A DNA stretch of 64,000 bases from Lachnospiraceae bacterium (GCA_031555615.1 JAVBUF010000009.1:26102-90101), one strand, 5' to 3'; counted from the stretch's first letter, positions 4,479-51,803 are shown. Notes: generated from the sequence alone by a model not told the origin. Translations and numbers: made by a program.

Positions 4479-5195
4479 TTATAATCCCAAACGCGCCATG
4501 ACTTCCTGATAAGCTTCCTCAACATTGCCCAAATCCCGGCGGAAACGGTCCTTGTCCAGTTTCTCATCGGTATGAACATCCCACAGCCGGCAGGTATCGG
4601 GAGACACTTCGTCAGCCAGAATAATCCGGCTTTCCCCGTCACCGTAGTAACGGCCAAACTCTATCTTAAAGTCAATCAGCTTCATATTAGCCTGCAAAAA
4701 ATATGCTTTCAAAACCTCATTTACCTGAAATGCATATCTCTTTATAATTTCAATTTCTTCCCATGTAGCCAATTCCAGGGCCACCGCAAAATAATCGTTG
4801 ATCAGGGGATCACCCAGACTATCGTTTTTATAGCTGAACTCGATGGTGGGCTGGCTGAAAACTTTGCCCTCCGGTACCCCCAGCCGCTTGGAAAAACTGC
4901 CGGCGGCCACATTCCTGACAATGACCTCCAAAGGAACAATCTCCACTTTTTTAACAGCCGTTTCCCGGGCACTGAGTTCTTCAATCAGGTGGGTGGGAAC
5001 TCCTTTTTCCTCCAGAATGCGGAAGATGTGGTTGGTCATCCGGTTATTGATCTCTCCTTTACCGGTAATGGTTCCTTTTTTCTCACCATTAAATGCCGTA
5101 GCATCATCCTTGTAGTCCACAATCAGGACGAATGGGTCTTCCGTTGCATAAACCTTTTTTGCCTTGCCTTCATAAAGCTGATTCAGTTTTTTCAT
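4479..5195 (-). CDS. purC: phosphoribosylaminoimidazole-succinocarboxamide (SAICAR) synthase
   Basis: Trimmed to ATG 5195 (GAGGAGAG RBS). Sequence reads [21 protein letters not shown]..., with LIDFKIEFG and [13 protein letters not shown], typical of PurC. Confidence 0.92.
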
Positions 5196-5241
5196 GATAC
5201 TCTCCTCTTTTTGCTGAAAACCGTTAACTTTTCCACCAAAA

Positions 5242-5270
5242 AGTATATACCATGAAAAAACAGAAATCAA
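5242..5270 (-). promoter_or_regulatory. candidate sigma-A promoter for purC-purB-purF-like genes
   Basis: The minus strand reads TTGATT-17 nt-TATACT about 45 nt upstream of the purC ATG. The -35 overlaps the stop codon of the ABC ATPase gene. Confidence 0.35.
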
Positions 5271-6019
5271 TAAAATTTTCCGATAAATTCTTTAACCCGG
5301 TCATTTTCGGAATGGAAAATTTCCTCCGGAGGGCCTTCTGCCTGTATCAATCCCTGTTCCATAAAAATAATCCGGTCGGAAAGTTCTTTGGCAAACTGCA
5401 TCTCATGGGTTACGATAATCATGGTCATATGTTCCTTTGCCAGCTCCTTGATAACCTTCAATACCTCCCCGGTTAATTCCGGATCGAGAGCCGATGTAGG
5501 CTCATCAAAAAAGAGGATCTTGGGCTGTAAAGCCAGTGCTCTGGCGATGGATACCCGCTGCTGCTGACCGCCGGAAAGCTGGTAAGGGTAGGCATGGGCC
5601 TTTTCCGCCAGTCCCAATTGCTCCAAAAGCTTCTCCGCCCGCTCCTGAGCTTCCTTCTTCGGCACCTTATCCACACTGACAGGGGCATCCATTATATTTT
5701 TCAGCACACTGTAATGGGGAAACAAATTAAAGTTTTGAAAAACCAGCCCGAAATGCTTCTGAATTTCTTTCAGCTTGGGTTTGGGAGCATAAACACATCT
5801 GCCCTCTTCTTCCCAGGCCGCCTTTTCACCCAGATAGCAAAGCTCGCCGCCATCCATCTTTTCCAAAAGCGTGGCGCAGCGCAGCAGCGTGGATTTCCCC
5901 GAACCCGAAGGACCGATAATGGACAACACTTCCCCTTCCTTCACCGTCAACGAGATATCGTTAATAACATCCAACTCATCAAACCCTTTTTTCATATGAG
6001 AAATTTCCAGTAAATTCAT
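5267..6019 (-). CDS. polar amino-acid ABC transporter, ATP-binding protein
   Basis: Walker [13 protein letters not shown] signature LSGGQQQRV, Walker [13 protein letters not shown]. Confidence 0.92.
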
Positions 6020-6041
6020 CGTCTTCTCCCTTTTCGTCTTG

Positions 6042-6689
6042 CTAGCGGTAATAGTTCAAGGCCTTTTCCAGCCGTTCCATGGCAACTGCCACTACCAGAT
6101 TAAAAATATAATAGAACACTCCGGCTACCATCAGCGGCACGATATTGGCCTCCTTGGCCGCAATCTGCTTGGCAATGGTAAACATCTCTGCTTGAGCCAG
6201 TACAAATGCCAGAGAGGTATCCTTTACCAGGGTAATGGTCTCATTGGTAACCGGCGGCAGAATCCGCTTGATCACCTGGGGCAGAATAATCTTAAAGAAC
6301 GTCTGTCCCTTATTATACCCCAGTACCTTGGCCGCTTCATACTGCCCCACCGGCATGGATTCGATGCCCGACCGGTAGATCTCCGCAAAATAAGCGGCAT
6401 AGTTCAATGCGAAAGCTAAAATAATCGCCGGAAAACGAAATCCCGACAAGTTCATTTTAAACAGGTAGAAGGGCGCGAAATAAATCACTATCAGCTGCAG
6501 CATCAAAGGCGTCCCCCGCATAATCGAAATATACACCTTCGTCAGATTCCTGACAAACCCATTCTTCGACATTCTCCCAAAAGAAAATAAAAGCCCCAGC
6601 GGCAGCGAAAATATCAACGTCAGAAAAAAGATTTCCACCGACGAAATCATACCCTTTCCCAATTGCAGCAACATCGTAGTTATACTCAT
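6042..6689 (-). CDS. polar amino-acid ABC transporter permease
   Basis: Multi-TM ORF trimmed to ATG 6689 (AGGAGGAAGG RBS). His/Glu/Gln-type permease loop [22 protein letters not shown]. Confidence 0.85.
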
Positions 6690-7731: not shown

Positions 7732-7760
7732 AGTGTAACAGAACAAGAGGTTTCTGTCAA
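7732..7760 (-). promoter_or_regulatory. sigma-A promoter of the amino-acid ABC operon
   Basis: The minus strand reads TTGACA-17 nt-TACACT, starting directly after the stop of the upstream gene. Confidence 0.55.
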
Positions 7761-8948
7761 TTATCCGTTAAATTTTTTCTCATAGTTTGCCACCATCTGT
7801 AAAATCTCACTGGCATATTGGGGATACTTTTCTACCAAATCCTTGATTTCTTCCTGTGCATTATGAGCCACAACTTCCTTGTTATAATCAATTCTGCGGC
7901 GCAGGGACTGTCTGCGGATAATCAGATCATGTCTGATTTCCACCATTTCTTTTTTGTCCAGTATCGCCGCTGTCTGATGCAGCCAAACCGCCGGGTCCTT
8001 CACCTGGTACCGGCGCAAAATATGCAGCAGATCCTTCTGGCAGATATCCAGTTCCCGTTCCGCCTGCCGGTAGCTGTCCCGCTGTGCTTTTTCTTCCTGA
8101 TACTTAACCCATATCTTATCTAACTCCTGGGCATTGGATACCGCATACTTCAGCTGCAGGTACTCCAGCAGATTGGTATTATTGATGTACCTGATCTTAA
8201 CCGTATTATGCAGCAAAATAATTTTATTGATGCTTTTTTCCACTCGCTTCAGTTCTTTAACAGAATCGCTGTGCTTGATGTAAATCAGGGTAATTGCCAA
8301 TGCTGCTCCGCCAATGGTCAGCAGATAGCCCAGCCTGGTGTTCATTCCAAATCCCATCTGCAGCACCAAAAGCAGTATGATACATAAAGCCGCCGCCGTA
8401 ATACAAATCACAAGCATGCCCTTTAAATCTTCAATAATGCGCTGCAGCTCATGCTTTCGGAACAAATAGGCCTGCTTTTCATTATCCAGATGCCGCATAT
8501 CTGATTTGATCAGTCCCTGATAGTCTTCTGCTTCCTTTAATTTAACGTATCCTTCCTGTACCTCTTCGGCAAGTGATTCCATTTTTCGGTACTGGGCCTC
8601 ACTCATTCGGTTGGTGCGTTCCAAATAACCGTTTTTTTCGCCCTCCAACTGATTGATTTTTTTTGCTGCCTCTTCCAGCACCAGCCGTTCTTCTTCAGGC
8701 AATGCTTCCACTTCTTCCATATCTTTAAGATAGGAAGTAACCATATTATACTCAAACTGCAGATTTTCCACCTCTTTGGTGGCTTCGACGATTTGCTCCA
8801 GACAATTTTTTACATAATCCTGCCGTTGTTCCTTGTCATGAATTTCTAAATCGTCCCTGTCGTATACAACTTCATTCCATTCTTCAAATTCGTATTCCGT
8901 CTCATATTCTTTTCGGATCCGCTGCCATATCTTTTTTATAAAACCCAT
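7761..8948 (-). CDS. hypothetical membrane protein: cytoplasmic coiled-coil arms flanking a TM hairpin (gene D of the four-gene operon)
   Basis: 395-aa ORF with ATG start and GCGGAGcagaaca RBS. Heptad-like E/K/Q-rich regions lie on both sides of two hydrophobic segments (MLVICITAAALCIILLLVLQMGF and LGYLLTIGGAALAITLIYI). Confidence 0.7.
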   Translation of the reverse strand: MGFIKKIWQRIRKEYETEYEFEEWNEVVYDRDDLEIHDKEQRQDYVKNCLEQIVEATKEVENLQFEYNMVTSYLKDMEEVEALPEEERLVLEEAAKKINQLEGEKNGYLERTNRMSEAQYRKMESLAEEVQEGYVKLKEAEDYQGLIKSDMRHLDNEKQAYLFRKHELQRIIEDLKGMLVICITAAALCIILLLVLQMGFGMNTRLGYLLTIGGAALAITLIYIKHSDSVKELKRVEKSINKIILLHNTVKIRYINNTNLLEYLQLKYAVSNAQELDKIWVKYQEEKAQRDSYRQAERELDICQKDLLHILRRYQVKDPAVWLHQTAAILDKKEMVEIRHDLIIRRQSLRRRIDYNKEVVAHNAQEEIKDLVEKYPQYASEILQMVANYEKKFNG

Positions 8949-8962
8949 TGTTCTGCTCCGCT

Positions 8963-9796
8963 TTATTCCGTCACATTGTCCCTGTATTGTTGCTTGATCT
9001 CTGCTGTTAATTTATCAATCTCTTCATAATAGGAATTGACGTTTCCTTCTTCTTTATACACCTTTAATGCAAATAGCATCCGGTTTTCTCTGGTTTCTTC
9101 AAAATGACCGGCGGCCTGCTCCACCAAATGCTCCACTTCCAAAGAAAGGTTGTAGAACTGCGGCCGTTTCGCAATAAACCGAATATATTCCTCATCCGTC
9201 AGCATCTGCCGGACTGCCGCCAGATACTGGATGCCCGATTCTTCATTACCGGTAATCTCGTAAGCTTTCAGAAAGCTTTCCGCTGCCCTGTCAAATAAAA
9301 ACAGTTTTGCAAAAACCACCCCCCGGTTATGATAGATGGGCCCGCTGATGACCATTTCCCCCTGGGGTATGATATCCAAAATACTGTCATATTCCTGCAA
9401 AGCCATGAAATATTTCCCATTCCTGACCAAAAAGTCGGCCCGCTTTTTTTTCTTTTCATTATCATTAAGCCCTACATTACTTTGTAAAATCTCTGCTATC
9501 TGCTTCTGTTCATCCGGAGTACAATAATTTACATACTCTAAAATAGTCATCACAAACAGGCTGACCGAATTGGCCTTATGAAATAAATTATGTAATTTTA
9601 TTCCCAGCTCGTCAAGGGCGCATTCTGTCTCCAGCCATTCCGCCAGATTTTTATCGACAATATCCCGGTCTAAGATAAACGGATTGGTTTTAAATAAATA
9701 GCATAGTTCTTCTACCGACCAAATGCTGATGCATAACTTTTGAAAATAATAGGGATTTTGCGCACTTCTCCCCACACATAACAATGGCTGCTTCAC
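8963..9796 (-). CDS. hypothetical helical (TPR-like) protein (gene C)
   Basis: 277-aa ORF with a GTG start (plus-strand cac at 9794..9796) and AAAGGAG 8 nt upstream. TPR-like helix pairs, for example FLVRNGKYFMALQEYDSIL and HNRGVVFAKLFLFDRAAESFLKAYEI. Confidence 0.7.
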   Translation of the reverse strand: MKQPLLCVGRSAQNPYYFQKLCISIWSVEELCYLFKTNPFILDRDIVDKNLAEWLETECALDELGIKLHNLFHKANSVSLFVMTILEYVNYCTPDEQKQIAEILQSNVGLNDNEKKKKRADFLVRNGKYFMALQEYDSILDIIPQGEMVISGPIYHNRGVVFAKLFLFDRAAESFLKAYEITGNEESGIQYLAAVRQMLTDEEYIRFIAKRPQFYNLSLEVEHLVEQAAGHFEETRENRMLFALKVYKEEGNVNSYYEEIDKLTAEIKQQYRDNVTE

Positions 9797-9812
9797 TGGT
9801 TTTCTCCTTTGC

Positions 9813-11108
9813 CTATGATACCGTAAACTCCTGTACCCATTTCTTACCGCTGGCCGGAAACAGCTCTCCGAACCCCATATCCGTTACCGTAAACTGCACC
9901 TGTCTGGCGGAGATCATCCGAATCTGGATAAGCAGCCGGGTGGTCCGCTCCGGTCTCTCCGGCAAGCCTTCCAAAAATATGGTTTCTTCTGTAACTACGC
10001 CACCGGTCAAGGATGTCACAATAAAAGACAACTGTTTTCCTTCATTAATGATTACTTCAAATTGGCTGCGAACCTCATACCAGTTGATTCCGGCATCCAA
10101 AACCGCATAATAAGATTCCACTCCCTGCCGCAATATTTTCATACCGATATTGGCTTTCAGTTTGTCCTCTCCCAGAAAAACCTGCATTGCATTAATGTCC
10201 GTGGGATTCTGCTTTTCCAGCGCACCATAGCAGGCACCTTTGCTATACAGATTATTCCCCTGAAAGACCCGCCGTCCACGGCATAAAAACTTCAGCGATT
10301 GATCCGCCCAATTATCCTTAAATCCATCCCCCAATAAGTAAACCGTGGTAACAATCCGGTCACGGCACATCTGCTCCGCAACTTCCAAAAAACGAAGATC
10401 CTGTTCTCTCTTCTGTTCTTCTGACCGCTCCATTCTCGTCAGATGGGAAAATTCCTGCTTCTCCACAAACACCACTTTCGGAGTGGTTCGGTTATTGCTT
10501 TCCAAAAGATAAGCCTTCAATTTCTCATGATAATCAAAAACCAATACCTGATGAACCCACAACTCCTTTGGCTGATGAATCACATACTGATAGATACTTT
10601 CCCGGTAGCTCTGAAAGAAAACACATTCCGGTGCAATCTGCAATCCTGCGGCTACTGTGCTCAGGACCTCCACCGTCCGCATGTCCAGATTTTCCACGGT
10701 AAACATAAAGGCCCGGATATCTGCCGGCTTTACTTCCATGGATAACAGCGACAGGCTCCGCTTGACGAACAAGGTAAGTAAGGCCGCCGGGTCAAAGCTC
10801 TCGTTATCAATCTGAACCGGTTCTCCGCTTAGTGCCAATTGATAGATGTTTTCCAGCAGAATCCCATCCTCCTGACCGGCATATTTAAGCGCTTCCTTCC
10901 CATAAAACCACTGCCCCACTCCTCTTCGTTTGCAAAGAGCTGTGGGAATATTATATTGTTCCGTACCCATTACCGCCGATGCCGTCTCGGGCTCATTGCC
11001 GTTCACGCCGCAATAACTGATCTGAGAATACAAATTACCCAGATCATATCCGATAATCGCGGCACCCAAACCTTTTTTTCCAATGTTTAAAACATTATTC
11101 ATAACCAT
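9813..11108 (-). CDS. divergent Hsp70/actin-fold protein with degenerate nucleotide-binding motifs (gene B)
   Basis: 431-aa ORF. By-eye matches to DnaK: AAIIGYDLGNLYSQISY vs KIIGIDLGTTNSCVAV, VYLLGDGF vs VILVGGQT, NLYSKGACYGAL vs NPDEAVAIGAA. The C-terminal LLIQIRMISARQVQFTVTDMGFGE resembles the SBD-beta segment [23 protein letters not shown]. Confidence 0.7.
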   Translation of the reverse strand: MVMNNVLNIGKKGLGAAIIGYDLGNLYSQISYCGVNGNEPETASAVMGTEQYNIPTALCKRRGVGQWFYGKEALKYAGQEDGILLENIYQLALSGEPVQIDNESFDPAALLTLFVKRSLSLLSMEVKPADIRAFMFTVENLDMRTVEVLSTVAAGLQIAPECVFFQSYRESIYQYVIHQPKELWVHQVLVFDYHEKLKAYLLESNNRTTPKVVFVEKQEFSHLTRMERSEEQKREQDLRFLEVAEQMCRDRIVTTVYLLGDGFKDNWADQSLKFLCRGRRVFQGNNLYSKGACYGALEKQNPTDINAMQVFLGEDKLKANIGMKILRQGVESYYAVLDAGINWYEVRSQFEVIINEGKQLSFIVTSLTGGVVTEETIFLEGLPERPERTTRLLIQIRMISARQVQFTVTDMGFGELFPASGKKWVQEFTVS

Positions 11109-11117
11109 ATGCCCCGC

Positions 11118-14100
11118 CTAGGTCTGGAGATGGAACAATTGCTCCACTACAAACTCCTGTCTGTAAAAATCATACAATAAACTGTTTACCGTTTCATAAT
11201 CCTGCAGCATCTTGGCAATTGCAATATCATTGATCTGATTAAACTTGCATTCCCGCTGCTCGCCGATAATATCGCTCTTGCTGATACTGGCACTTTCGGT
11301 AAGATGTTCCTTATCCTCTTCCTTTTCGGCTATATAATACAATAACTGCTCTCCGAAAAAGAGAACAAATTGCTTGGCACATACACCGCCGTACATATCA
11401 CGCATCTCTTCTTTTGTGTATTCGCTTTTCCCCACACCATCCCGTTCGATGAGATAATGGATGATGGCCGTGTTTCCGGATTTGGCCCGGTATTCAATAA
11501 TCGTCTTATCCAAAAACTGTTCCATAAACGGAAAAGTTTCCACATACTCTTTATAAAAAGAAAAATAAATATTTTGTTTGATAAGCTGTTTTAAAAACGG
11601 CTGCAGGATGGCCTTTACCCCTTCGTCAATTTCCCCGGAATTTTCCGCAAAATATTTTACAAAAGCCAGTTTACAGATCAGATCCAATTCTTCCCTGCGT
11701 TCTAAGGCCCGAACCATCTGATTAATCACAAAAACATCGGTCACTTTATCGTGGACAAAATAATTATAAGCACATTGTGCCAAAAAAGCTGCTTCGACCC
11801 GGTTCTTTCCGCCTCCGACCACATAATCCTTGAAGATTGCTATCTGCTCTCCCACGAAAGATCCGGAATAGAGCATTTGTATCAGCAGTCTTTCACTAAG
11901 CTCATAAGTATCCAGGGTAAAATCTTTAGCCGCCTTCCATATATTCCGCATCTGCCTGATAGTCCCTTTGTAAAACCGGTTCAGATACTGCAAAAGCCTT
12001 TCATCATACTTACCTGCGGCAAATGCCGTATAGGCCAGCACTGTCATCTTTTTATCTGCCGAGACCTTTTCTTCGGCAAGCACCGCTCTCAGTACCCTTA
12101 ACATTTGTTTGGCATCCATTCCGGCGGTACCGATAATTGTCATCCATTCATAAGCTCGGGAATACATATAGCGCACAATCATCAATTTGAGGATCTCCGC
12201 ATAGTTTCTGCTTGCCACCTGTGTTACCTCAATTGTATTCAGAATTTTATCCAGCTGTTCAATAAGGTCCTGCTCATATAAATATCGAATCAGTTTGATC
12301 CTGATCTCTTTTTGATAACTGTCGGCCAAATAGTCCGTCTCCAGAACCCGTACCATAGCCTCCCGATTGGCATCCGTCACAAGAGCTATATCATCTCCCT
12401 GTTCACACATCCATAGATCAAAACCGATCAGATCCCGTACCATGGGGGCAGCCATTTTGGCCAGCTTATCCGGCCAGATCAGTTTTTCGATAGTATAATT
12501 TTCTTCCCCTGCATAGCGGTTTCCCTCATAATCCTCCAGAAATACGTGAAAACCGTTTCCGTATAAGGGGATATAATTTTGTCTGCCTCCCACCGGATAG
12601 GTAATTTCTGTTTTACCTTTATCATAAATTACAATAATTTCCCGAATATCTTTCCGCTGCACCGTTACCTGCATCGTAAATAATGCTTCTGCCAGTCCGG
12701 CGGCATTATCAGGCGTAATCATGCCGGGTGAAATAATATTTTTATATAAATAAGCCAGCCACTTATTCATATGTCCTTTGGCCATCTGCTGAACCACAAA
12801 ACGTTCAATGGATTCCTGATAGCTTTCATACAATTCCGGAAAATCTTCCCGATATTTATGAACATTGGCATATAAATAGGCATTGTATCGATAATCCATG
12901 TCACTATTGTAGGCAAAATACATCAAAACCATTTTAGGCAGTTTTTCATCCGTTTCCAAATCTACAGACATCAGATAATATTCATATAACCGGGTCACCC
13001 GGAGTTCCCTCTCGATTCCCAGCTTGTACCATTGCAGATATTCCGTTCCCCGGCAATTTCCCTTGATCAATAATCCGCAGATAACCTTTACCACCTCGTC
13101 TGAAGGCGCAACCCTATAGCAGGCTTTCAGAATCTGGAACAGAAAACCGGAATATTCTTTGCTTTTGGAAATCAAATAGACAATCTGACTGATCAGTTCA
13201 GGCGTCAATAATTCCTTCTTGGCCGCATACAAAAGAATATGTCTTTCAAACCCTTCCATTTTCATTAACAGCGTTGGGTTTTGCTGCAGCAGATGAAGGG
13301 CCTCGATATAAATAACCGGACTGGAGCAGTTACGCTTAAACTGTTCTTCCAGGATCATCCATTTTTTAGAAGGACTTTTGTTGTAATCCTCCATCAGGTA
13401 AGTCAAAAGCCATGCAACCCGCCAATTATCACTATTTTGGGTGAAAATACGCTCTACCTGCGCCGCTACGGCATCTATGTATTCTTCTTCCCCGCTATGA
13501 AGGGTAGTCAGATACTGATAGTAACACCACAGCGCCGGTTCCCACTCTTCATTGCTTTGCAGCAGAGCATCTGCATGGTCAAGCATCCAGTTTGCTTCAT
13601 TATACCGTTCTTCGGTAATCAAAAGCTGGGCCTTAAATAATTTGGCGGAAACATCCTGATCGTTGAATGCAACCATTTTATCTACCAGCTTTGCTGTTTC
13701 CTTCCGCCATGTGGCGGCACTAATCTTTTTGGTTCGGAATGCCGCATAATATTCCATTAATTCCAAGATATGATGCTTCTGCTCCCGGCGAAGGCTTTTT
13801 CGTTTGGGCAGGCCGGTTTGCTTGGAAACCGTAATGGGAATGATCATCTCCATGTGGGCATTATATATTCTTATTTTGCCCATATTATATCCGGCATGGA
13901 GCTTTTCGGCCGAAATATAGTAAGGAAGACGATAGAAATTCCCCAAAAAATCTTCCTCTCTGATATATTCCTTATCAATCCGCAAAAAGTCCCCTTCTGC
14001 CTGGACTCTTAGCCAGGTATATCCCCATCCGTTTCGATTTATGGTCAGTGTATATTCTGTTGGTTCTTCCGGAGCATCTATGCGGATTTGTGTTTCAGAT

Positions 14101-14690
14101 ACCAGATATTCGATTCTTTGCTTCTTTTTCACAACCTGCAGGAATTCTTCAACGTTTTGCTCGTTTTTTTTGTCTTTACCGCCGGAAAGTCCCCGGTATA
14201 GGGGATAATACTGCCGGTCCGTTCCCTGAAAAACCCGGTAAAAGTCTTCACTGTAAAATAAATTTACCGCTTCCTCCCAATTGGTTTTGGCCAGGTTTGT
14301 AAAATGAAAAAGATTTTTGACCGCTCCCAGGCTGGACATGATTTCTCCTGGGACTATTACTATTTTATAAGGAATCGTGTACTCACCATGATTGGATATG
14401 ATCACAAATTCCCCTTCACGACTGCTTCCTTCTTCAATGTTTTGAGCATGAAAAGAAAAAGCTATTTCTGACACAGCCCCGGCAAATTCATCCGTAAAAC
14501 ACTCCATCTCCAGACCATTGGTAAATACATACCCCTCGGTCAGTTGATTGACAGGCCCGTATATCTCAAAAGCTCCTTCATAATCCTCTCCCGCGGTTAG
14601 TTCTATTTCAATCTTAGAGCAGGAGAAGTCCAATGCTCCCGTGTCCGGCTGAAATTTCCCATCTAATATGCGGTCAATGATATCCCTCAT
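11118..14690 (-). CDS. giant hypothetical cytoplasmic protein: two N-terminal beta-sandwich-like modules plus about 850 aa of helical repeats (gene A)
   Basis: 1190-aa uninterrupted ORF with no signal peptide or TM segment. The first ~290 aa are beta-rich (EFVIISNHGEYTIPYKIVIV; GKIRIYNAHMEMIIPITV). The remainder is Y/F/W/L-rich and helical. Confidence 0.8.
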   Translation of the reverse strand: MRDIIDRILDGKFQPDTGALDFSCSKIEIELTAGEDYEGAFEIYGPVNQLTEGYVFTNGLEMECFTDEFAGAVSEIAFSFHAQNIEEGSSREGEFVIISNHGEYTIPYKIVIVPGEIMSSLGAVKNLFHFTNLAKTNWEEAVNLFYSEDFYRVFQGTDRQYYPLYRGLSGGKDKKNEQNVEEFLQVVKKKQRIEYLVSETQIRIDAPEEPTEYTLTINRNGWGYTWLRVQAEGDFLRIDKEYIREEDFLGNFYRLPYYISAEKLHAGYNMGKIRIYNAHMEMIIPITVSKQTGLPKRKSLRREQKHHILELMEYYAAFRTKKISAATWRKETAKLVDKMVAFNDQDVSAKLFKAQLLITEERYNEANWMLDHADALLQSNEEWEPALWCYYQYLTTLHSGEEEYIDAVAAQVERIFTQNSDNWRVAWLLTYLMEDYNKSPSKKWMILEEQFKRNCSSPVIYIEALHLLQQNPTLLMKMEGFERHILLYAAKKELLTPELISQIVYLISKSKEYSGFLFQILKACYRVAPSDEVVKVICGLLIKGNCRGTEYLQWYKLGIERELRVTRLYEYYLMSVDLETDEKLPKMVLMYFAYNSDMDYRYNAYLYANVHKYREDFPELYESYQESIERFVVQQMAKGHMNKWLAYLYKNIISPGMITPDNAAGLAEALFTMQVTVQRKDIREIIVIYDKGKTEITYPVGGRQNYIPLYGNGFHVFLEDYEGNRYAGEENYTIEKLIWPDKLAKMAAPMVRDLIGFDLWMCEQGDDIALVTDANREAMVRVLETDYLADSYQKEIRIKLIRYLYEQDLIEQLDKILNTIEVTQVASRNYAEILKLMIVRYMYSRAYEWMTIIGTAGMDAKQMLRVLRAVLAEEKVSADKKMTVLAYTAFAAGKYDERLLQYLNRFYKGTIRQMRNIWKAAKDFTLDTYELSERLLIQMLYSGSFVGEQIAIFKDYVVGGGKNRVEAAFLAQCAYNYFVHDKVTDVFVINQMVRALERREELDLICKLAFVKYFAENSGEIDEGVKAILQPFLKQLIKQNIYFSFYKEYVETFPFMEQFLDKTIIEYRAKSGNTAIIHYLIERDGVGKSEYTKEEMRDMYGGVCAKQFVLFFGEQLLYYIAEKEEDKEHLTESASISKSDIIGEQRECKFNQINDIAIAKMLQDYETVNSLLYDFYRQEFVVEQLFHLQT

Positions 14691-14735
14691 GTCATCTCAC
14701 CATCCAAAACATTTTTGTAAAATATGACTAACATA

Positions 14736-14765
14736 AGTATACCATTTTTTTCCCCTGGTGCGCAA
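14736..14765 (-). promoter_or_regulatory. candidate extended -10 promoter of the four-gene operon
   Basis: The minus strand reads TTGCGC-18 nt (ending in TGg)-TATACT, about 45 nt upstream of the ATG at 14690. Confidence 0.45.
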
Positions 14766-14785: not shown

Positions 14786-14965
14786 TTACTGTTTACCGGC
14801 AGTCCAGTGAGCCGCAGCTCCTTCCCCGGTGAAAAGTGCACTTTCTTCTTTTGTCTGCCGGTAGCCCTTCACTTCTTCTCCTTCAAAAGTACTGCCCAGA
14901 GGATGTTTCATGAACATTTCCTGCATCGTCAGACCAGATCGGACGGGTTGTTCTTTATGTTTCAT
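14786..14965 (-). CDS. small hypothetical protein (about 59 aa)
   Basis: ORF-track frame 14786..14971. The second ATG (14965) has GAAAGG 8 nt upstream. The sequence MKHKEQPVRSGLTMQEMFMKHPLGSTFEGEEVKGYRQTKEESALFTGEGAAAHWTAGKQ has normal protein-like composition but I recognise no family. Confidence 0.35.
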   Translation of the reverse strand: MKHKEQPVRSGLTMQEMFMKHPLGSTFEGEEVKGYRQTKEESALFTGEGAAAHWTAGKQ

Positions 14966-15101
14966 AAGCATGCCTTTCTGATAATATTTTCTTATTCTGA
15001 CTATGCCCGGACTTGTCCTTCTTTATACTGGCAGCAATAAAAATCCCCCTGCAAACAGCCGCTGTCCGCGGAATCGTTATTACAGGAGGGTTTTCTTATA
15101 G

Positions 15102-16331
15102 CTAAACTGCCAGTCGGGCAACCGCAGTATAGATGTAGGATATTTTATACCAGGTGGCATAATCCACTACTCCGGTCTGCGGTAAATCAAAGATTCTTTG
15201 AAAGGTCTTTACCGCTTCCGATGTTCGGGGCCCGTAGATACCATCCGCCACCAATGTCGGGATCAACGGATAGGATTTGGAGATACGGTTCAATTGCTGC
15301 TGGATAATTCGGACGCTTTCGCCGGTTGAGCCAATATAAAGATCATATCCCGGCCAGGAAGTCGGCACCCCGGCAACTCGTTCGGCGGTATTTATGAACA
15401 TATCATTGCCATAATAGTTACGGATAATCTCAATTGCCGAATATCCCTGATCCCCCAGTGTCTTAGATCCCCACTGGCTCAATCCGTTACAGGTTACCCG
15501 GTCACCGTCACAGTAGGCGGTCAAAATCGGCTGCCGTACACCTGGCCTTGACAGGTAATTGGCGAATACGCTGTCTACCAGATAATCAATGTTGCTGAAA
15601 ATATTTCGTCCGTAAGAAAATTTCTGATCAAAAGCTGTGGAACTGGTAATGGTAAAGTTATATCCCTGCCCTCTGTACCATTCCGTAAAAACCCGGTTCA
15701 ATGTGAAAGACATTATCGCCAATATGTTCGCATAAATAGCATTCTCCGGCCAGGTTGCATAAATTTCACAGGATGCCACATTCTTTACATAATCCTGATA
15801 CCGTACATAATAGTTATTTGCCGACGTGTCCTGTGGCGGGCCATCATGAACCACAATATATTCAGGAATTACCACTTGCGGCAGGACGATTTCCCCGCTT
15901 TCGTCCATAGGTTTGATCTCAGCTTCCGGGATCTTAGGGGGATATTCATAAAACAGAGTATGGGGCGGAACTGCCACATCCCGGCCTTCCTCATCCACTT
16001 CCAGAGGACGCATGGCGATGGGTTGAATGGCCTTCACATCCGGCAGTATCTGCGCTCCCGATATCAATACCGGTTCATAGCCGGGAGCACTGACTTCAAT
16101 ATTGTATTCACTGTAAGGCTGCTCTACGGAAGGCTCCAGACTGTAATCAATGGGGGGGGCCGGTACTTCGATTGTTTCGGTCTGGCCGGAAGAATCCGTC
16201 GCAAGACTTTCCAAAGTACGATCCGGATTCCCGGTAAAGGAAATGGTGATGGTTGCATCTTCGATTGGTATTAAGCCTACTGAGGATGTGACATTGATCT
16301 GCAAGCTGCCTCTGGCATTATTTTCAGGCAT
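15102..16331 (-). CDS. peptidoglycan-binding spore cortex-lytic enzyme-like protein (SleC-like)
   Basis: 409 aa. N-terminal carboxypeptidase-regulatory-like beta domain (LQINVTSSVGLIPIEDATITISF). Central conserved region YIVVHDGPP...WPENAIYANILAIMSFTLNR. C-terminal PG_binding_1-type repeat (GSTGESVRIIQQQLN...DGIYGPRTSEAVKTFQRIFDLPQTGVVDYATW). Confidence 0.65.
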   Translation of the reverse strand: MPENNARGSLQINVTSSVGLIPIEDATITISFTGNPDRTLESLATDSSGQTETIEVPAPPIDYSLEPSVEQPYSEYNIEVSAPGYEPVLISGAQILPDVKAIQPIAMRPLEVDEEGRDVAVPPHTLFYEYPPKIPEAEIKPMDESGEIVLPQVVIPEYIVVHDGPPQDTSANNYYVRYQDYVKNVASCEIYATWPENAIYANILAIMSFTLNRVFTEWYRGQGYNFTITSSTAFDQKFSYGRNIFSNIDYLVDSVFANYLSRPGVRQPILTAYCDGDRVTCNGLSQWGSKTLGDQGYSAIEIIRNYYGNDMFINTAERVAGVPTSWPGYDLYIGSTGESVRIIQQQLNRISKSYPLIPTLVADGIYGPRTSEAVKTFQRIFDLPQTGVVDYATWYKISYIYTAVARLAV

Positions 16332-18541: not shown

Positions 18542-18568
18542 TTAGCACTCATTTGTCATGAGTGCTAA
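18542..18568. promoter_or_regulatory. CIRCE element (HrcA operator)
   Basis: TTAGCACTC-atttgtcat-GAGTGCTAA is a perfect match to the CIRCE consensus TTAGCACTC-N9-GAGTGCTAA. Confidence 0.88.
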
Positions 18569-22071: not shown

Positions 22072-22788
22072 TCAACCGGTGACTTTTTTCCGCATGGACA
22101 ATAAAATACGTTTTTCCATACGGCTTACCTGCACCTGAGAGATGCCCAGCCGGCCCGCCACCTCAGTCTGGGTCTTTTCCTGAAAATACCGTAACCGGAT
22201 CAATTCTCTTTCATTTTCCTCCAATTCGGAAAGCAACTGTTCTAACATGATATTGTTGATAACGTGCTCGGACTTATCCGCATCCGCCAGCTTGTCCACT
22301 AAGTAAATTTCGTTTCCATCGGTCTGATAAACCGTTTTATGAATGGATTCCACTTCCGCTCCGGCTTCCATGGCCATCACAATATCTTCCGGCAGGAACC
22401 CGGTTTCCTCAGCCAACTGGGATAGGGTCGGTTCCTGTCCTGTCTGCTGCCGCAGCCGTTCCGCTGCCTGTTTAACTTTATAGCCGTTTTCCTTGATGGA
22501 ACGGCTTACCTTTATCATCCCGTCATCTCTTAAAAAACGCTTGATTTCACCACTGATCATGGGTACCGCGTAAGTGGAAAATTTCACCTCGTAAGAAATA
22601 TCAAATTTATCGATAGCCTTCATTAATCCAATGGTTCCTATCTGCAATAAGTCTTCCACTTCACATCCTCTGCCGATAAACCGCTTGACGATGTGGTGAA
22701 CCAATCCCAAGTTTTTCTCTACCAGTACTTCTCGTGCTTCTTTTTCTCCTGCATGTGAACGTTCAATCAGTACGGTGAGTTCATCCAT
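22072..22788 (-). CDS. sigF: sporulation sigma factor SigF
   Basis: Sigma-70 regions 2-4 (LQIGTIGLMKAIDKFD, YAVPMISGEIKRFLRDD, QTEVAGRLGISQVQVSRMEKR). It lies downstream of spoIIAA and spoIIAB. Confidence 0.9.
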   Translation of the reverse strand: MDELTVLIERSHAGEKEAREVLVEKNLGLVHHIVKRFIGRGCEVEDLLQIGTIGLMKAIDKFDISYEVKFSTYAVPMISGEIKRFLRDDGMIKVSRSIKENGYKVKQAAERLRQQTGQEPTLSQLAEETGFLPEDIVMAMEAGAEVESIHKTVYQTDGNEIYLVDKLADADKSEHVINNIMLEQLLSELEENERELIRLRYFQEKTQTEVAGRLGISQVQVSRMEKRILLSMRKKVTG

Positions 22789-22791
22789 AAG

Positions 22792-23355
22792 CTATTCCTC
22801 ATGACCGATCCATGGACTGATTCCTATTTTTTTCTTCATCAATATAGTGGTGCCGTAGCCCGGCTCGGAAATCACTTCCAGATCATCCATAAAGGCTTCC
22901 ATAAAGGCAAATCCCATTCCTGAACGGTCCAGTTCCGGCTTGGATGTATAAAGAGGTTCCATGGCCAGTTCAATATTGGCAATCCCTTTGCCTTTGTCCC
23001 ATACTTCAACATGAAGAACATCCCCCTCCTGAACGCAATGGATATATATCTTGGGTTTTTCCGCAAGTTTTTCGTTTCTCTGGAAATATTCTTCATCATA
23101 TCCATGAATAACCGCATTGGTAACTGCTTCCGAAACTGCCGTCTTTACATCCGAAATCTCTTCTAACGTGGGATTCAGTGGGGACAGGAATGCTGCCACA
23201 GCCATTCTGGCAAAGGATTCATTAATGGAAACCGCATCAAATTCCAATTGCATTTCATTATAGTCCTTATTAAACCCTTCCCTTTCTTCCCCTTCTTCTC
23301 TTTTCATTCTCCTGATTAAATATTGTTCCTCTGTTTTACCGGTCATTGTTTTCAT
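22792..23355 (-). CDS. spoIIAB: anti-sigma F factor (serine kinase) SpoIIAB
   Basis: MQLEFDAVSINESFARMAVAAFL...VSEAVTNAVIHGY matches the B. subtilis SpoIIAB N-terminus (MHLEFSALSQNESFARVTVASFI..SEAVTNAIIHGY). The frame stays open 34 codons upstream to ATG 23355 (AGGAGGgaaATG). The alternative start 23253 would give a typical 153 aa. Confidence 0.9.
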   Translation of the reverse strand: MKTMTGKTEEQYLIRRMKREEGEEREGFNKDYNEMQLEFDAVSINESFARMAVAAFLSPLNPTLEEISDVKTAVSEAVTNAVIHGYDEEYFQRNEKLAEKPKIYIHCVQEGDVLHVEVWDKGKGIANIELAMEPLYTSKPELDRSGMGFAFMEAFMDDLEVISEPGYGTTILMKKKIGISPWIGHEE

Positions 23356-51730: not shown

Positions 51731-51803
51731 GGAGGCATAGCTCAGTTGGGAGAGCACCTGCTCGACAAGCAGGTTGTCGCTGGTTCGAGTCCAGTTGTCT
51801 CCA
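51731..51803 (+). tRNA. tRNA-Val (anticodon GAC), no encoded CCA
   Basis: Manual cloverleaf: acceptor GGAGGCA/TGTCTCC, D arm GCTC-AGTTGGGA-GAGC, anticodon arm CCTGC-TCGACAA-GCAGG, variable TTGTC, T arm GCTGG-TTCGAGT-CCAGT, discriminator A. U8, A14, G18G19, T54T55C56 and A58 are present. Position 33 is C. Confidence 0.88.

Follow-up and report, generated by a model that had tools for sequence, protein, structure and literature searches.

A conserved four-gene operon of Lachnospiraceae encodes a protein of predicted Hsp70 fold together with a scaffold-like, a TPR-like and a membrane-hairpin protein

The window analysed here, a stretch of 64,000 nucleotides from a Lachnospiraceae bacterium (GCA_031555615.1, JAVBUF010000009.1:26102-90101), contains a compact operon of four open reading frames, A to D, all on the minus strand. 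Gene A (11118..14690, 1190 aa) is followed by gene B (9813..11108, 431 aa), gene C (8963..9796, 277 aa) and gene D (7761..8948, 395 aa), with intergenic gaps of 9 nt (A-B), 16 nt (B-C) and 14 nt (C-D). A, B and D start with ATG and C with GTG. An initial annotation made from the sequence alone had given the same lengths and gaps and one GTG start. It had also credited each gene with its own Shine-Dalgarno sequence; clear ribosome-binding sites are present at C (AAGGAG) and D (GGAG), and that of A reads GGTGAG, but the claim was slightly generous for B, which is preceded only by a weak G-rich run (GGCGGGG) touching the stop codon of A. The operon has its own promoter at 14736..14765 (minus strand), as previously annotated and as read directly from the DNA: a -35 element TTGCGC (14765..14760), an 18-nt spacer ending in TGG and a TGn-extended -10 element TATACT (14741..14736). 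A generic sigma-70 scan did not list this promoter. It is supported by phylogenetic footprinting, which finds the same architecture in relatives: in 51 of the 72 loci from related species, TTGCGA-N18-TATACT precedes A with at most two mismatches, nearly always with ATGG directly before TATACT. Judged by these motifs, the promoter is of the sigma-A type with an extended -10 element and not of the sigma-E, F, G or K type. No CIRCE element, CtsR box or Spo0A box was found in the region before A. The promoter of the next operon, TTGACA-17-TACACT with TG extension, follows directly after the stop of D (7760..7732), where the initial annotation had placed it.

The order A-B-C-D and the tight spacing (median gaps of 14-19 nt) are kept in all 80 species-level loci, A being absent from one species-level locus at a contig end; because order and spacing are constant (80/80), the grouping goes beyond chance. 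The operon occurs in gut Lachnospiraceae, its hosts being, among others, Lachnospira eligens, Roseburia inulinivorans and [Bacteroides] pectinophilus. Two further bacterial contigs share the gene order, and so do 51 of 52 distant metagenome loci, which had been picked around D homologues 23-31% identical to the D protein of the window; the exception, locus L130, carries D without A-C upstream. Co-occurrence of the four genes, which the initial annotation had proposed to examine, is thus essentially absolute. The surroundings are a different matter. The gene htpG, a peptidoglycan-binding gene and an ABC transporter adjoin the operon only in close relatives, whereas the distant loci are flanked by housekeeping genes (rarA, pheST, queA, valS, gltX), and the comparison of near with far loci revealed no flanking gene family in common. 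The functional link that the initial annotation drew to the folding and sporulation genes nearby is therefore not upheld. We propose instead that the operon belongs to the core cell biology of Lachnospiraceae and is vegetative in character, as indicated by its housekeeping flanks and its sigma-A-type promoter.

A sporulation-specific function, in a morphogenetic or spore-envelope assembly complex, might be suspected from the window itself, in which the four genes lie near a SleC-like peptidoglycan-binding gene and near the spoIIA operon, whose sigF and spoIIAB genes are at 22072-23355, and from the near loci, 52 of 80 of which have a peptidoglycan-binding gene upstream. We regard such a function as very unlikely: the conserved promoter is not of a sporulation sigma type, a Spo0A box is missing before A, and the distant loci have no sporulation neighbours. 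The operon is moreover retained in L. eligens and R. inulinivorans, both of which are described as non-spore-forming.

Multi-gene modules of uncharacterised proteins in which repeat proteins accompany an Hsp70-like NTPase fold, as found here, also call to mind anti-phage or other conflict systems. The candidates are the GTPase-tubulin-Hsp70 and GAP1-N2 GTPase-Hsp70-GrpE systems, in which a TRAFAC GTPase core is accompanied either by tubulin or by Hsp70, GrpE and DnaJ/TPR-FNIII proteins, along with variable effectors (Kaur et al. 2020, PMC7159879); we set these apart from the operon by comparing their description with its domain content, from which GTPase, tubulin, GrpE, DnaJ and effector domains are all absent. 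A tblastn search with B did return five records labelled 'Bacteriophage sp.', but two of them, the unverified virome contigs H1 and H2, carry valS, gltX, feoB, rarA and MCP and hence represent bacterial chromosome. None of the four proteins matched PADLOC (E<=1) or PHROGs (E<=0.01), and a plasmid search for the operon gave no match. The locus is single, strongly conserved, fixed in order and embedded in housekeeping genes, contrary to a variable island, and a role in conflict appears extremely improbable.

Proteins A and B are named 'DUF5717 family protein' and 'DUF5716 family protein' in the source records, and the suggestion in the initial annotation that both were catalogued only as domains of unknown function is correct. 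The two Pfam families are on record without a function; in the papers covered by our literature search we found no description of the operon, of DUF5716 proteins as Hsp70s or of C and D as obligatory partners. The search for homology to a characterised system yielded no match either, which leaves the earlier reading as a membrane-tethered scaffold, chaperone-like or cytoskeletal assembly unrefuted.

Protein A belongs to the DUF5717 family by a significant full-length match to PF18984 (DUF5717_N, residues 1-875, E=0, 1013 bits) and PF18983 (DUF5717 C-terminal, residues 879-1186, E 8.4e-100). According to the AlphaFold model (pLDDT 82.7), it begins with a pair of Ig-like beta-sandwiches between which a helical segment is inserted (residues 20-289, 13824..14633); in Foldseek, this part matched Ig pairs of titin and beta-sandwich proteins of the ciliary central pair. 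The sandwiches are followed by two TPR-like alpha-solenoids (300-670 and 742-1059, together 11514..13793) with a small beta-domain between them (672-736), and by a C-terminal beta-domain and two helices (1062-1185, 11136..11507). The model thus agrees with the two N-terminal beta-sandwiches and the helical repeats of the initial annotation, which had overlooked the other two beta-domains. Foldseek with A returned only generic TPR superhelix scaffolds (Ski3, IFT-A, Ctr9, Naa15) and Ig/ASH-like beta-sandwiches, all at low TM-scores. A cluster of family-wide invariant residues is located at 457-649 and includes T566-R-L-Y-E-x-Y572. No transmembrane segment was detected in A by a hydropathy scan, and as modelled it is a large, probably cytoplasmic scaffold of TPR-like and Ig-like parts.

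Protein B carries DUF5716_C (PF18980, residues 134-429), for which it scores 362 bits (gathering cut-off 34.7, E 2e-108). The Hsp70-type fold that the initial annotation had suspected is borne out by the model (pLDDT 84.3, pTM 0.73): the top 50 Foldseek matches in the PDB are all DnaK, Hsc70, BiP, Hsp110 or Ssz1, with E-values down to 9e-19 and a query-normalised TM-score of up to 0.58 at only 11-13% identity, and the match to DnaK/Hsp70 spans the nucleotide-binding domain and the beta substrate-binding domain. At the level of sequence the relationship is invisible, as B has no match to Pfam HSP70 (PF00012) at E<=1, its profile found no Hsp70 in the PDB at E<=10, and the hhalign comparison with DnaK gave a probability of 0.2%. 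B therefore differs from DnaK in that profile comparisons are non-significant, but resembles it in the two-domain fold and in several motifs, whose equivalence follows from their order along the fold and not from a residue-level structural superposition. The shortened actin/Hsp70-type nucleotide-binding domain predicted by the model (residues 17-300, 10209..11060) retains a phosphate-1 motif of the GxDLG type (GYDLG, 20-24), a catalytic-type glutamate (E170) and the G-x-G adenosine motif in LLG[DE]GFK (258-264). D22 (the phosphate-1 aspartate), E170 and G260/G262 are invariant family-wide. On the other hand, the phosphate-2 GGG-T loop is lost, with FDYHEK in place of DLGGGT, and lobe IIB is reduced in the model to a single helix (230-248). 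The beta substrate-binding domain is modelled with the eight strands of the Hsp70 type (309-429, 9822..10184), and B stops at residue 431, right after the last strand (423-429), so that the alpha-helical lid is absent. The domain shares the L-x-G-[IL]-P...beta6-beta7 pattern of DnaK; a weak hhalign alignment places LEGLPERPxRTTRL... of B in register with DnaK LDGINPAPRGMPQIEV.... By its predicted fold B is thus a stripped-down Hsp70 relative. That its ATP-binding motifs are degraded, as annotated initially, applies to the phosphate-2 loop, together with the loss of lobe IIB and lid, but not to the invariant D22, E170 and G-x-G, on account of which B may have kept the ability to bind nucleotide and even to hydrolyse it. 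N342, W343, Y344, P383, R385, R391, D410, G412, F413 and G414 of the substrate-binding domain are likewise invariant family-wide, and the sharp conservation of the loops NWYE, LPERPxRTTRL and DMGFG suggests a specific ligand.

The TPR-like character assigned initially to C is recovered in weak form. A central TPR pair (residues ~110-182, 9251-9469, minus strand) matches Pfam TPR_2 below the gathering cut-off (3.5e-4), and the profile of C finds Tah1, designed CTPR proteins and PilF in the PDB at E-values of 0.002-0.01, with Tah1 as the best match (0.0024). We take C to be possibly a small soluble TPR protein. Its invariant residues are E114, D121, H156 and N157. K117 and N157 align with the clamp residues K8 and N43 of Tah1, but the position of N12 is occupied by the invariant D121. 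A carboxylate-clamp co-chaperone of the Hop/Tah1 type was considered for C and rejected, as the K-N-N-K-R clamp is incomplete (N12 to Asp) and a partner with a C-terminal EEVD was sought in A, B and D and not found.

The retained residues of B leave room for another explanation, in which B is a genuine ATP-driven, specialised Hsp70 that cycles on clients at the membrane and A, C and D replace the J-domain and exchange-factor co-chaperones. Such an arrangement would have parallels in HscC with its membrane-anchored partners DjlB and DjlC and in the docking of Hsp70 on TPR receptors (Tom70, Sec72). D22, E170, G260 and G262 stand at the positions of the Hsp70 phosphate-1 aspartate, the catalytic glutamate and the adenosine glycines, the beta substrate-binding domain is complete, TPR proteins are encoded beside B, and htpG with a perfect CIRCE element adjoins the operon in the window and in 38 of the 80 near loci. 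However, B has neither the phosphate-2 glycine/Thr loop nor lobe IIB nor a lid, and neither a J-domain/DnaJ nor GrpE was detected in A, C and D or in those neighbouring genes that were checked, though such partners may be encoded elsewhere in the genome. A CIRCE or CtsR element before A is lacking, htpG is no longer adjacent in the distant loci, and the Tah1 N12 equivalent in C is an aspartate while A, B and D do not end in EEVD. We consider an ATP-driven B rather unlikely.

Searches with protein D in Pfam, NCBIfam, PADLOC and PHROGs gave no match. Of the four proteins, D shows the strongest conservation in close relatives, with 54-89% identity over 80 species, and its family comprises 884 clusters at 50% identity. 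The hydropathy scan and the alignment identify a transmembrane hairpin of two helices with a loop of about six residues (177-224, 8277..8420), flanked on either side by soluble regions, which the initial annotation had read as long coiled-coil arms. Since the loop is short and the flanks are basic, both long soluble parts should lie on the same side of the membrane, presumably in the cytoplasm. The first 12 residues (8913..8948) form a conserved peptide, MG-hydrophobic-hydrophobic-x-x-hydrophobic-K, which distant homologues carry on a low-complexity tether 25 to 230 residues long; on this pattern the peptide behaves like a docking motif. Its amphipathicity is no higher than that of shuffled controls. 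A relationship to PspA, Vipp1 or ESCRT-III, to which the MGLF-type N-terminal helix gave a lead, was not supported at the level of sequence (hhalign probability of 0.4% against E. coli PspA; no match to Pfam PspA_IM30 or Snf7).

The extreme conservation of D is what would be expected of a protein with many fixed contacts, and A is a very large repeat protein in a core, constitutive and family-wide gene set. Both properties would also suit a purely structural scaffold of the cytoskeleton, of division or of cell shape, with B as a non-chaperone module that binds no client. The sharply conserved loop motifs in the beta-domain of B argue against this explanation, as they point to a specific ligand, and neither Pfam nor the comparison of D with PspA revealed a homologue among the known bacterial proteins of the cytoskeleton or of division; we judge it unlikely.

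Our preferred, though tentative, reading is that A to D are subunits of one constitutive membrane-tethered complex, with B as a peptide clamp similar to Ssz1 and free of an ATPase cycle. The hairpin of D would anchor this complex in the cytoplasmic membrane and D would present two highly conserved, predicted cytoplasmic helical regions as well as its tethered N-terminal peptide. A would provide the large platform of TPR-like and Ig-like domains, and C might act as a small TPR adaptor. By analogy with Ssz1, B most likely operates without a J-protein/GrpE-driven ATPase cycle, as a stable clamping subunit that would grip a partner or client by an extended segment in its beta substrate-binding domain; the N-terminal peptide of D is a candidate for this segment. 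Processes possibly served by the complex are membrane-proximal protein assembly or targeting, or the organisation of the envelope or of division. A bolder version, unlikely as it stands, is that the operon encodes an unrecognised core machine of Lachnospiraceae, in which a largely ATP-independent, Hsp70-derived clamp within a giant, hairpin-anchored scaffold built from beta-sandwich and alpha-solenoid domains organises or remodels the cytoplasmic membrane or forms a membrane receptor or assembly platform for particular proteins. If true, this would be a bacterial counterpart, in principle and not by ancestry, of the Hsp70/TPR membrane receptors or the coat-like scaffolds of eukaryotes, and some of the most abundant commensals of the human gut might depend on it for viability.

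Ssz1 is a hydrolysis-inactive, stable subunit of the yeast ribosome-associated complex (RAC, Ssz1-Zuo1), and its substrate-binding domain holds a segment of its partner. Like B, it consists of a nucleotide-binding domain and a beta substrate-binding domain without helical lid, and Ssz1 structures are among the Foldseek matches of B, including 6sr6 ('pseudo substrate bound to Ssz1 SBD'). Ssz1 nevertheless keeps lobe IIB and is recognisable as an Hsp70 from its sequence, neither of which applies to B (identity ~11-13%). Ssz1 pairs with a J-protein in a complex that resides on ribosomes, while the neighbours of B are TPR/Ig scaffolds and a membrane protein, none with a J-domain. B also differs from DnaK in being encoded without DnaJ, GrpE or a heat-shock operator. 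C resembles the TPR proteins on which Hsp70 or Hsp90 docks (Tah1, Hop, Tom70, Sec72) as a TPR protein encoded beside an Hsp70-like one, but its match is marginal and it has additional N- and C-terminal regions. A further parallel is HscC of E. coli, a specialised Hsp70 paralogue in an operon with the membrane-anchored J-domain partners DjlB/DjlC. B likewise shares its operon with a predicted membrane-anchored partner; HscC, however, is ATPase-active and sequence-recognisable as an Hsp70, and its partners carry the J-domain that A, C and D lack.

The four genes lie on the minus strand in the order A (11118..14690, 1190 aa), B (9813..11108, 431 aa), C (8963..9796, 277 aa) and D (7761..8948, 395 aa); C starts with GTG, the others with ATG. 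Gaps of only 9 (A/B), 16 (B/C) and 14 nt (C/D) separate them, as the initial annotation had stated. Its assignment of a Shine-Dalgarno sequence to each gene holds for C (AAGGAG) and D (GGAG), where the signal is clear, and for A (GGTGAG), but in front of B there is no more than a weak G-rich run adjoining the stop codon of A. The promoter suspected upstream of A was located on the same strand as TTGCGC (14765..14760) and TATACT (14741..14736), separated by an 18-nt spacer ending in TGG. It is absent from the output of a generic sigma-70 scan. A TTGCGA-18-TGnTATACT arrangement precedes A in 51 of 72 loci of related species, which argues for a footprinted promoter and against a chance match; by its sequence it is predicted to be sigma-A-like. 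The promoter of the next operon was likewise found where it had been expected: a near-consensus TTGACA-17-TGnTACACT (7732-7760, minus strand) begins directly past the stop codon of D and serves an amino-acid ABC transporter operon. No terminator is present between D and this promoter, so that read-through from the four-gene operon into the transporter operon is possible.

Two minor features lie upstream of the operon. A 61-aa ORF (MLMKHKEQPV..., 14786-14971, minus strand) with a GAAAGG ribosome-binding site is situated between a peptidoglycan-binding gene and the operon promoter. Conservation of the encoded sequence extends to two related loci only (L002 and L003), not to the closest relative (L001), and the ORF was rejected as a part of the module. 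A GC-rich hairpin (CCCTCCTG...CAGGGGG) with a T-run at about 15036-15090 (minus strand) was spotted by eye directly 3' of the stop codon of the PG_binding_1 gene (15102-16331), and the terminator scan does not contain it. Such a hairpin would shield the operon from transcription entering from upstream.

Conserved co-occurrence of the four genes, on which the initial annotation had made its reading depend, is found among close and distant relatives alike. When one genome per species was scanned by pattern, 477 species proved to encode a relative of B; the 80 best loci (49-81% identity) share the order A-B-C-D with median intergenic gaps of 14-19 nt, apart from a single case, at a contig end, in which A is absent. 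Among close relatives D shows the strongest conservation of the four proteins (54-89% identity), and a search with its profile yielded 884 clusters at 50% identity. With the most divergent D homologues (23-31% identical to D of the window) as metagenome bait, 80 distant loci were collected, and A-B-C-D is intact in 51 of the 52 that have enough upstream DNA. In the lone exception, L130, the genes upstream of a D homologue of 611 aa (4584-6419) are not A-B-C but a radical SAM gene of YgiQ type and an ORF of 191 aa without family; pheS and pheT follow as in the other distant loci. Exact look-up identified Lachnospira eligens, Lachnospira rogosae, [Bacteroides] pectinophilus ATCC 43243 and Roseburia inulinivorans as hosts of the distant loci. 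The flanks of the two sets have zero gene families in common: close loci are often bordered by htpG, a peptidoglycan-binding gene and an ABC transporter, distant loci by rarA/mgsA, pheS/pheT, queA, valS and gltX. The module is a self-contained unit of the core chromosome, set amid housekeeping genes and inherited en bloc by very divergent family members. It appears to be constitutively expressed, with the profile of a core machine. We consider it very probable that A, B, C and D act together.

Protein B matches DUF5716_C (2e-108) in Pfam. Neither phmmer and profile searches against the PDB nor hhalign against DnaK gave a significant result, and fold comparison is the sole route that links B to Hsp70. 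The top 50 Foldseek matches of the structure model (pLDDT 84.3, pTM 0.73) are all Hsp70-family chains (DnaK, Hsc70, BiP, Hsp110, Ssz1); they span both the nucleotide-binding and the beta substrate-binding domain with E-values down to 9e-19 and 11-13% identity. The Hsp70-type fold that had been suspected is thus borne out, for a descendant that has diverged beyond recognition by sequence methods, and on the basis of the model DUF5716 proteins may be recognised for the first time as minimal Hsp70s. Compared with the established topology of DnaK, B terminates right past strand eight of its substrate-binding domain and therefore lacks the helical lid. A single helix (230-248) occupies the expected position of lobe IIB, and FDYHEK stands at the place of the glycine-rich phosphate-2 loop of Hsp70, motif equivalences being taken from the order along the fold and not from residue-level superposition. 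At least 95% conserved, in figures that take in the family from close to very distant members, are G20, D22 (GYDLG), E170, G260 and G262 (LLG[DE]GFK), and N286...G291-A292 of the nucleotide site, and the substrate-binding-domain loops N342-W-Y344, P383/R385/R391 and D410-x-G-F-G414. The description of the ATP-binding motifs as degraded is hence half right: it applies to the phosphate-2 loop and lobe IIB, but GYDLG, E170 and LLG[DE]GFK are kept. Since these other features survive, the nucleotide site is, as far as the model can tell, reduced and not erased. The invariant D22, E170 and G-x-G keep alive the main rival explanation, in which B is a true, specialised Hsp70 that runs on ATP and uses non-canonical cofactors. 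B has lost what makes Hsp70 a regulated chaperone driven by ATP, and we regard this explanation as doubtful.

Protein A is a full-length DUF5717 protein (Pfam PF18984, E=0; PF18983, 8e-100) without any hydrophobic segment. An AlphaFold model with 38 homologues as input (pLDDT 82.7, pTM 0.53) agrees with the two N-terminal beta-sandwiches and helical repeats of the initial annotation and provides a first, predicted domain anatomy of DUF5717: an Ig-like beta-sandwich (20-124) and, after a helical insert, another beta-sandwich (195-289); two alpha-solenoids (300-670 and 742-1059) parted by a small beta-domain (672-736); and a further beta-domain (1062-1136) with two terminal helices. In Foldseek comparisons with the PDB the N-terminus resembles tandem Ig/ASH-like sandwiches, and the solenoids match only generic TPR/HAT superhelical scaffolds that come from large complexes (Ski3, IFT-A subunits, Ctr9, Naa15, nucleoporins). 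All TM-scores are low, so that no specific relative was found. A profile of A gave MCP matches in the PDB at chance level only, and the model contains no enzymatic fold. A purely structural scaffold in cytoskeleton or division would accord with such an architecture and overlaps with the model favoured below; we deem it rather improbable.

Protein C was described as a small TPR-like protein, and its matches are of this kind, if weak: TPR_2 stays below the Pfam threshold, and a profile built from 17 sequences finds Tah1 (E 0.0024), designed consensus TPRs and PilF as its best PDB matches. Tah1 is an Hsp90/Hsp70-binding TPR protein. K117 and N157 of C align with its clamp residues, but an invariant Asp takes the position of Tah1 N12, and none of A, B and D bears an EEVD C-terminus. 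Judged from these residues, C is not a canonical carboxylate-clamp co-chaperone. The idea that C derives from A, whether as a fragment or as a paralogue, found no support and was rejected.

Protein D has no match in Pfam, NCBIfam, PADLOC, PHROGs or the PDB. Two neighbouring hydrophobic helices (about 177-199 and 206-224) with a connection of ~6 residues account for the transmembrane hairpin between long arms that had been proposed, and the short loop places both long soluble parts on the same side of the membrane, presumably the cytoplasmic one. The 'MGLF..' N-terminus had suggested a PspA/ESCRT-III relative, which was rejected at the sequence level (the profile is unlike PspA). This N-terminal peptide (8913-8948, minus strand) follows the pattern MG-hydrophobic-hydrophobic-x-x-hydrophobic-K and is retained in the D family (homologues in L081-L160), for example as MGLFDAFKKK, MGIFKFIKK or MGFIKKIWQR. 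In distant homologues 90-230 low-complexity K/E/D-rich residues are inserted behind it, and the linker grows from 25 residues in the window to ~230 in Lachnospira-type homologues. These extensions were rejected as informative fusions, being low-complexity linkers without a domain. Short, conserved and carried on a freely variable linker, the peptide behaves like a docking motif. The specificity of DnaK shows the classical signature of Hsp70 clients to be hydrophobic residues with basic residues on either side, which makes the peptide a candidate ligand for the substrate-binding domain of B. Alternatively, it could form an amphipathic membrane helix; its hydrophobic moment is not above that of shuffled controls.

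We propose that the operon encodes an Hsp70-based assembly in which A, B, C and D would form one membrane-tethered complex, with D as anchor, A as platform and C as adaptor. The lid-less B would be used as a fixed peptide clamp without an ATPase cycle, a mechanism that we put forward tentatively. The analysis establishes the gene set and its synteny, the folds of A and B, the hairpin and the promoter, whereas the complex as a physical entity, its topology, the missing ATPase cycle and the ligand are inferred. Its closest precedent is Ssz1 of the yeast ribosome-associated complex, structures of which are among the fold matches of B. Stripped of the parts named before, B offers a natural test of a minimal Hsp70 clamp within a fixed complex. 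The earlier description of the parts was largely right, including the remark that A and B are catalogued only as domains of unknown function; no family exists for C or D, and homology to an already characterised system was not found. Literature searches for DUF5716, DUF5717 and BACPEC locus tags returned nothing relevant, and no papers dealing with A, B, C or D were found. A fold and a working hypothesis are now given for two Pfam DUFs and two family-less proteins, and an obligatory four-gene module with a conserved promoter and a tethered D peptide is newly described across divergent Lachnospiraceae, major human gut species included. Lachnospiraceae such as Lachnospira eligens and Roseburia belong to the most abundant colonic bacteria in humans; to our knowledge their cell biology is almost unstudied.

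A defence role could be suspected from five 'Bacteriophage sp.' records matched by B, all of them unverified virome contigs. The two examined (L161, MT835486.1; L162, MT835719.1; 'UNVERIFIED: Bacteriophage sp.', faecal virome) carry valS, gltX, feoB, rarA and a chemoreceptor (MCP) gene. Aminoacyl-tRNA synthetases, feoB, rarA and a chemoreceptor identify bacterial DNA, and D of L162 has an identical counterpart in Roseburia inulinivorans; both GenBank records are mislabelled chromosome fragments of bacteria in a phage collection. PADLOC, PHROGs and plasmid searches gave no match, and a defence or mobile element was rejected. Published Hsp70-containing conflict systems require GTPases, tubulin, GrpE or DnaJ (PMC7159879); all are absent from the operon, and this assignment was rejected too. 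We consider a role in defence very unlikely.

The folding and sporulation genes in the neighbourhood of the operon had been taken as a hint to its function. This link did not hold up, as the flanks differ in distant loci and the htpG (with CIRCE), PrsA-like PPIase, sigF and spoIIAB of the window are not carried along with the operon elsewhere. CIRCE, CtsR and Spo0A boxes were absent upstream of A in 113 loci, and with a sigma-A-like promoter and neighbours that do not travel with the operon, membership in a heat-shock or sporulation regulon was rejected; a sporulation-specific role is very unlikely. The CIRCE element at the start of htpG (18542-18568, TTAGCACTC-N9-GAGTGCTAA) is perfect, with 0 mismatches against 0.01 such elements expected by chance. 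The longest htpG ORF overlaps it at its 5' end, and the true htpG start is therefore probably downstream of 18552. A sigma factor of the sigma-70 family (238 aa) and, next to it, an anti-sigma kinase with HATPase_c_2 (187 aa) are encoded at 22072-23355 (minus strand). The pair fits sigF and spoIIAB of a spoIIA operon, and on account of it the source organism probably sporulates. A single tRNA gene (51731-51803, plus strand) is the sole Rfam match across the 64-kb window.
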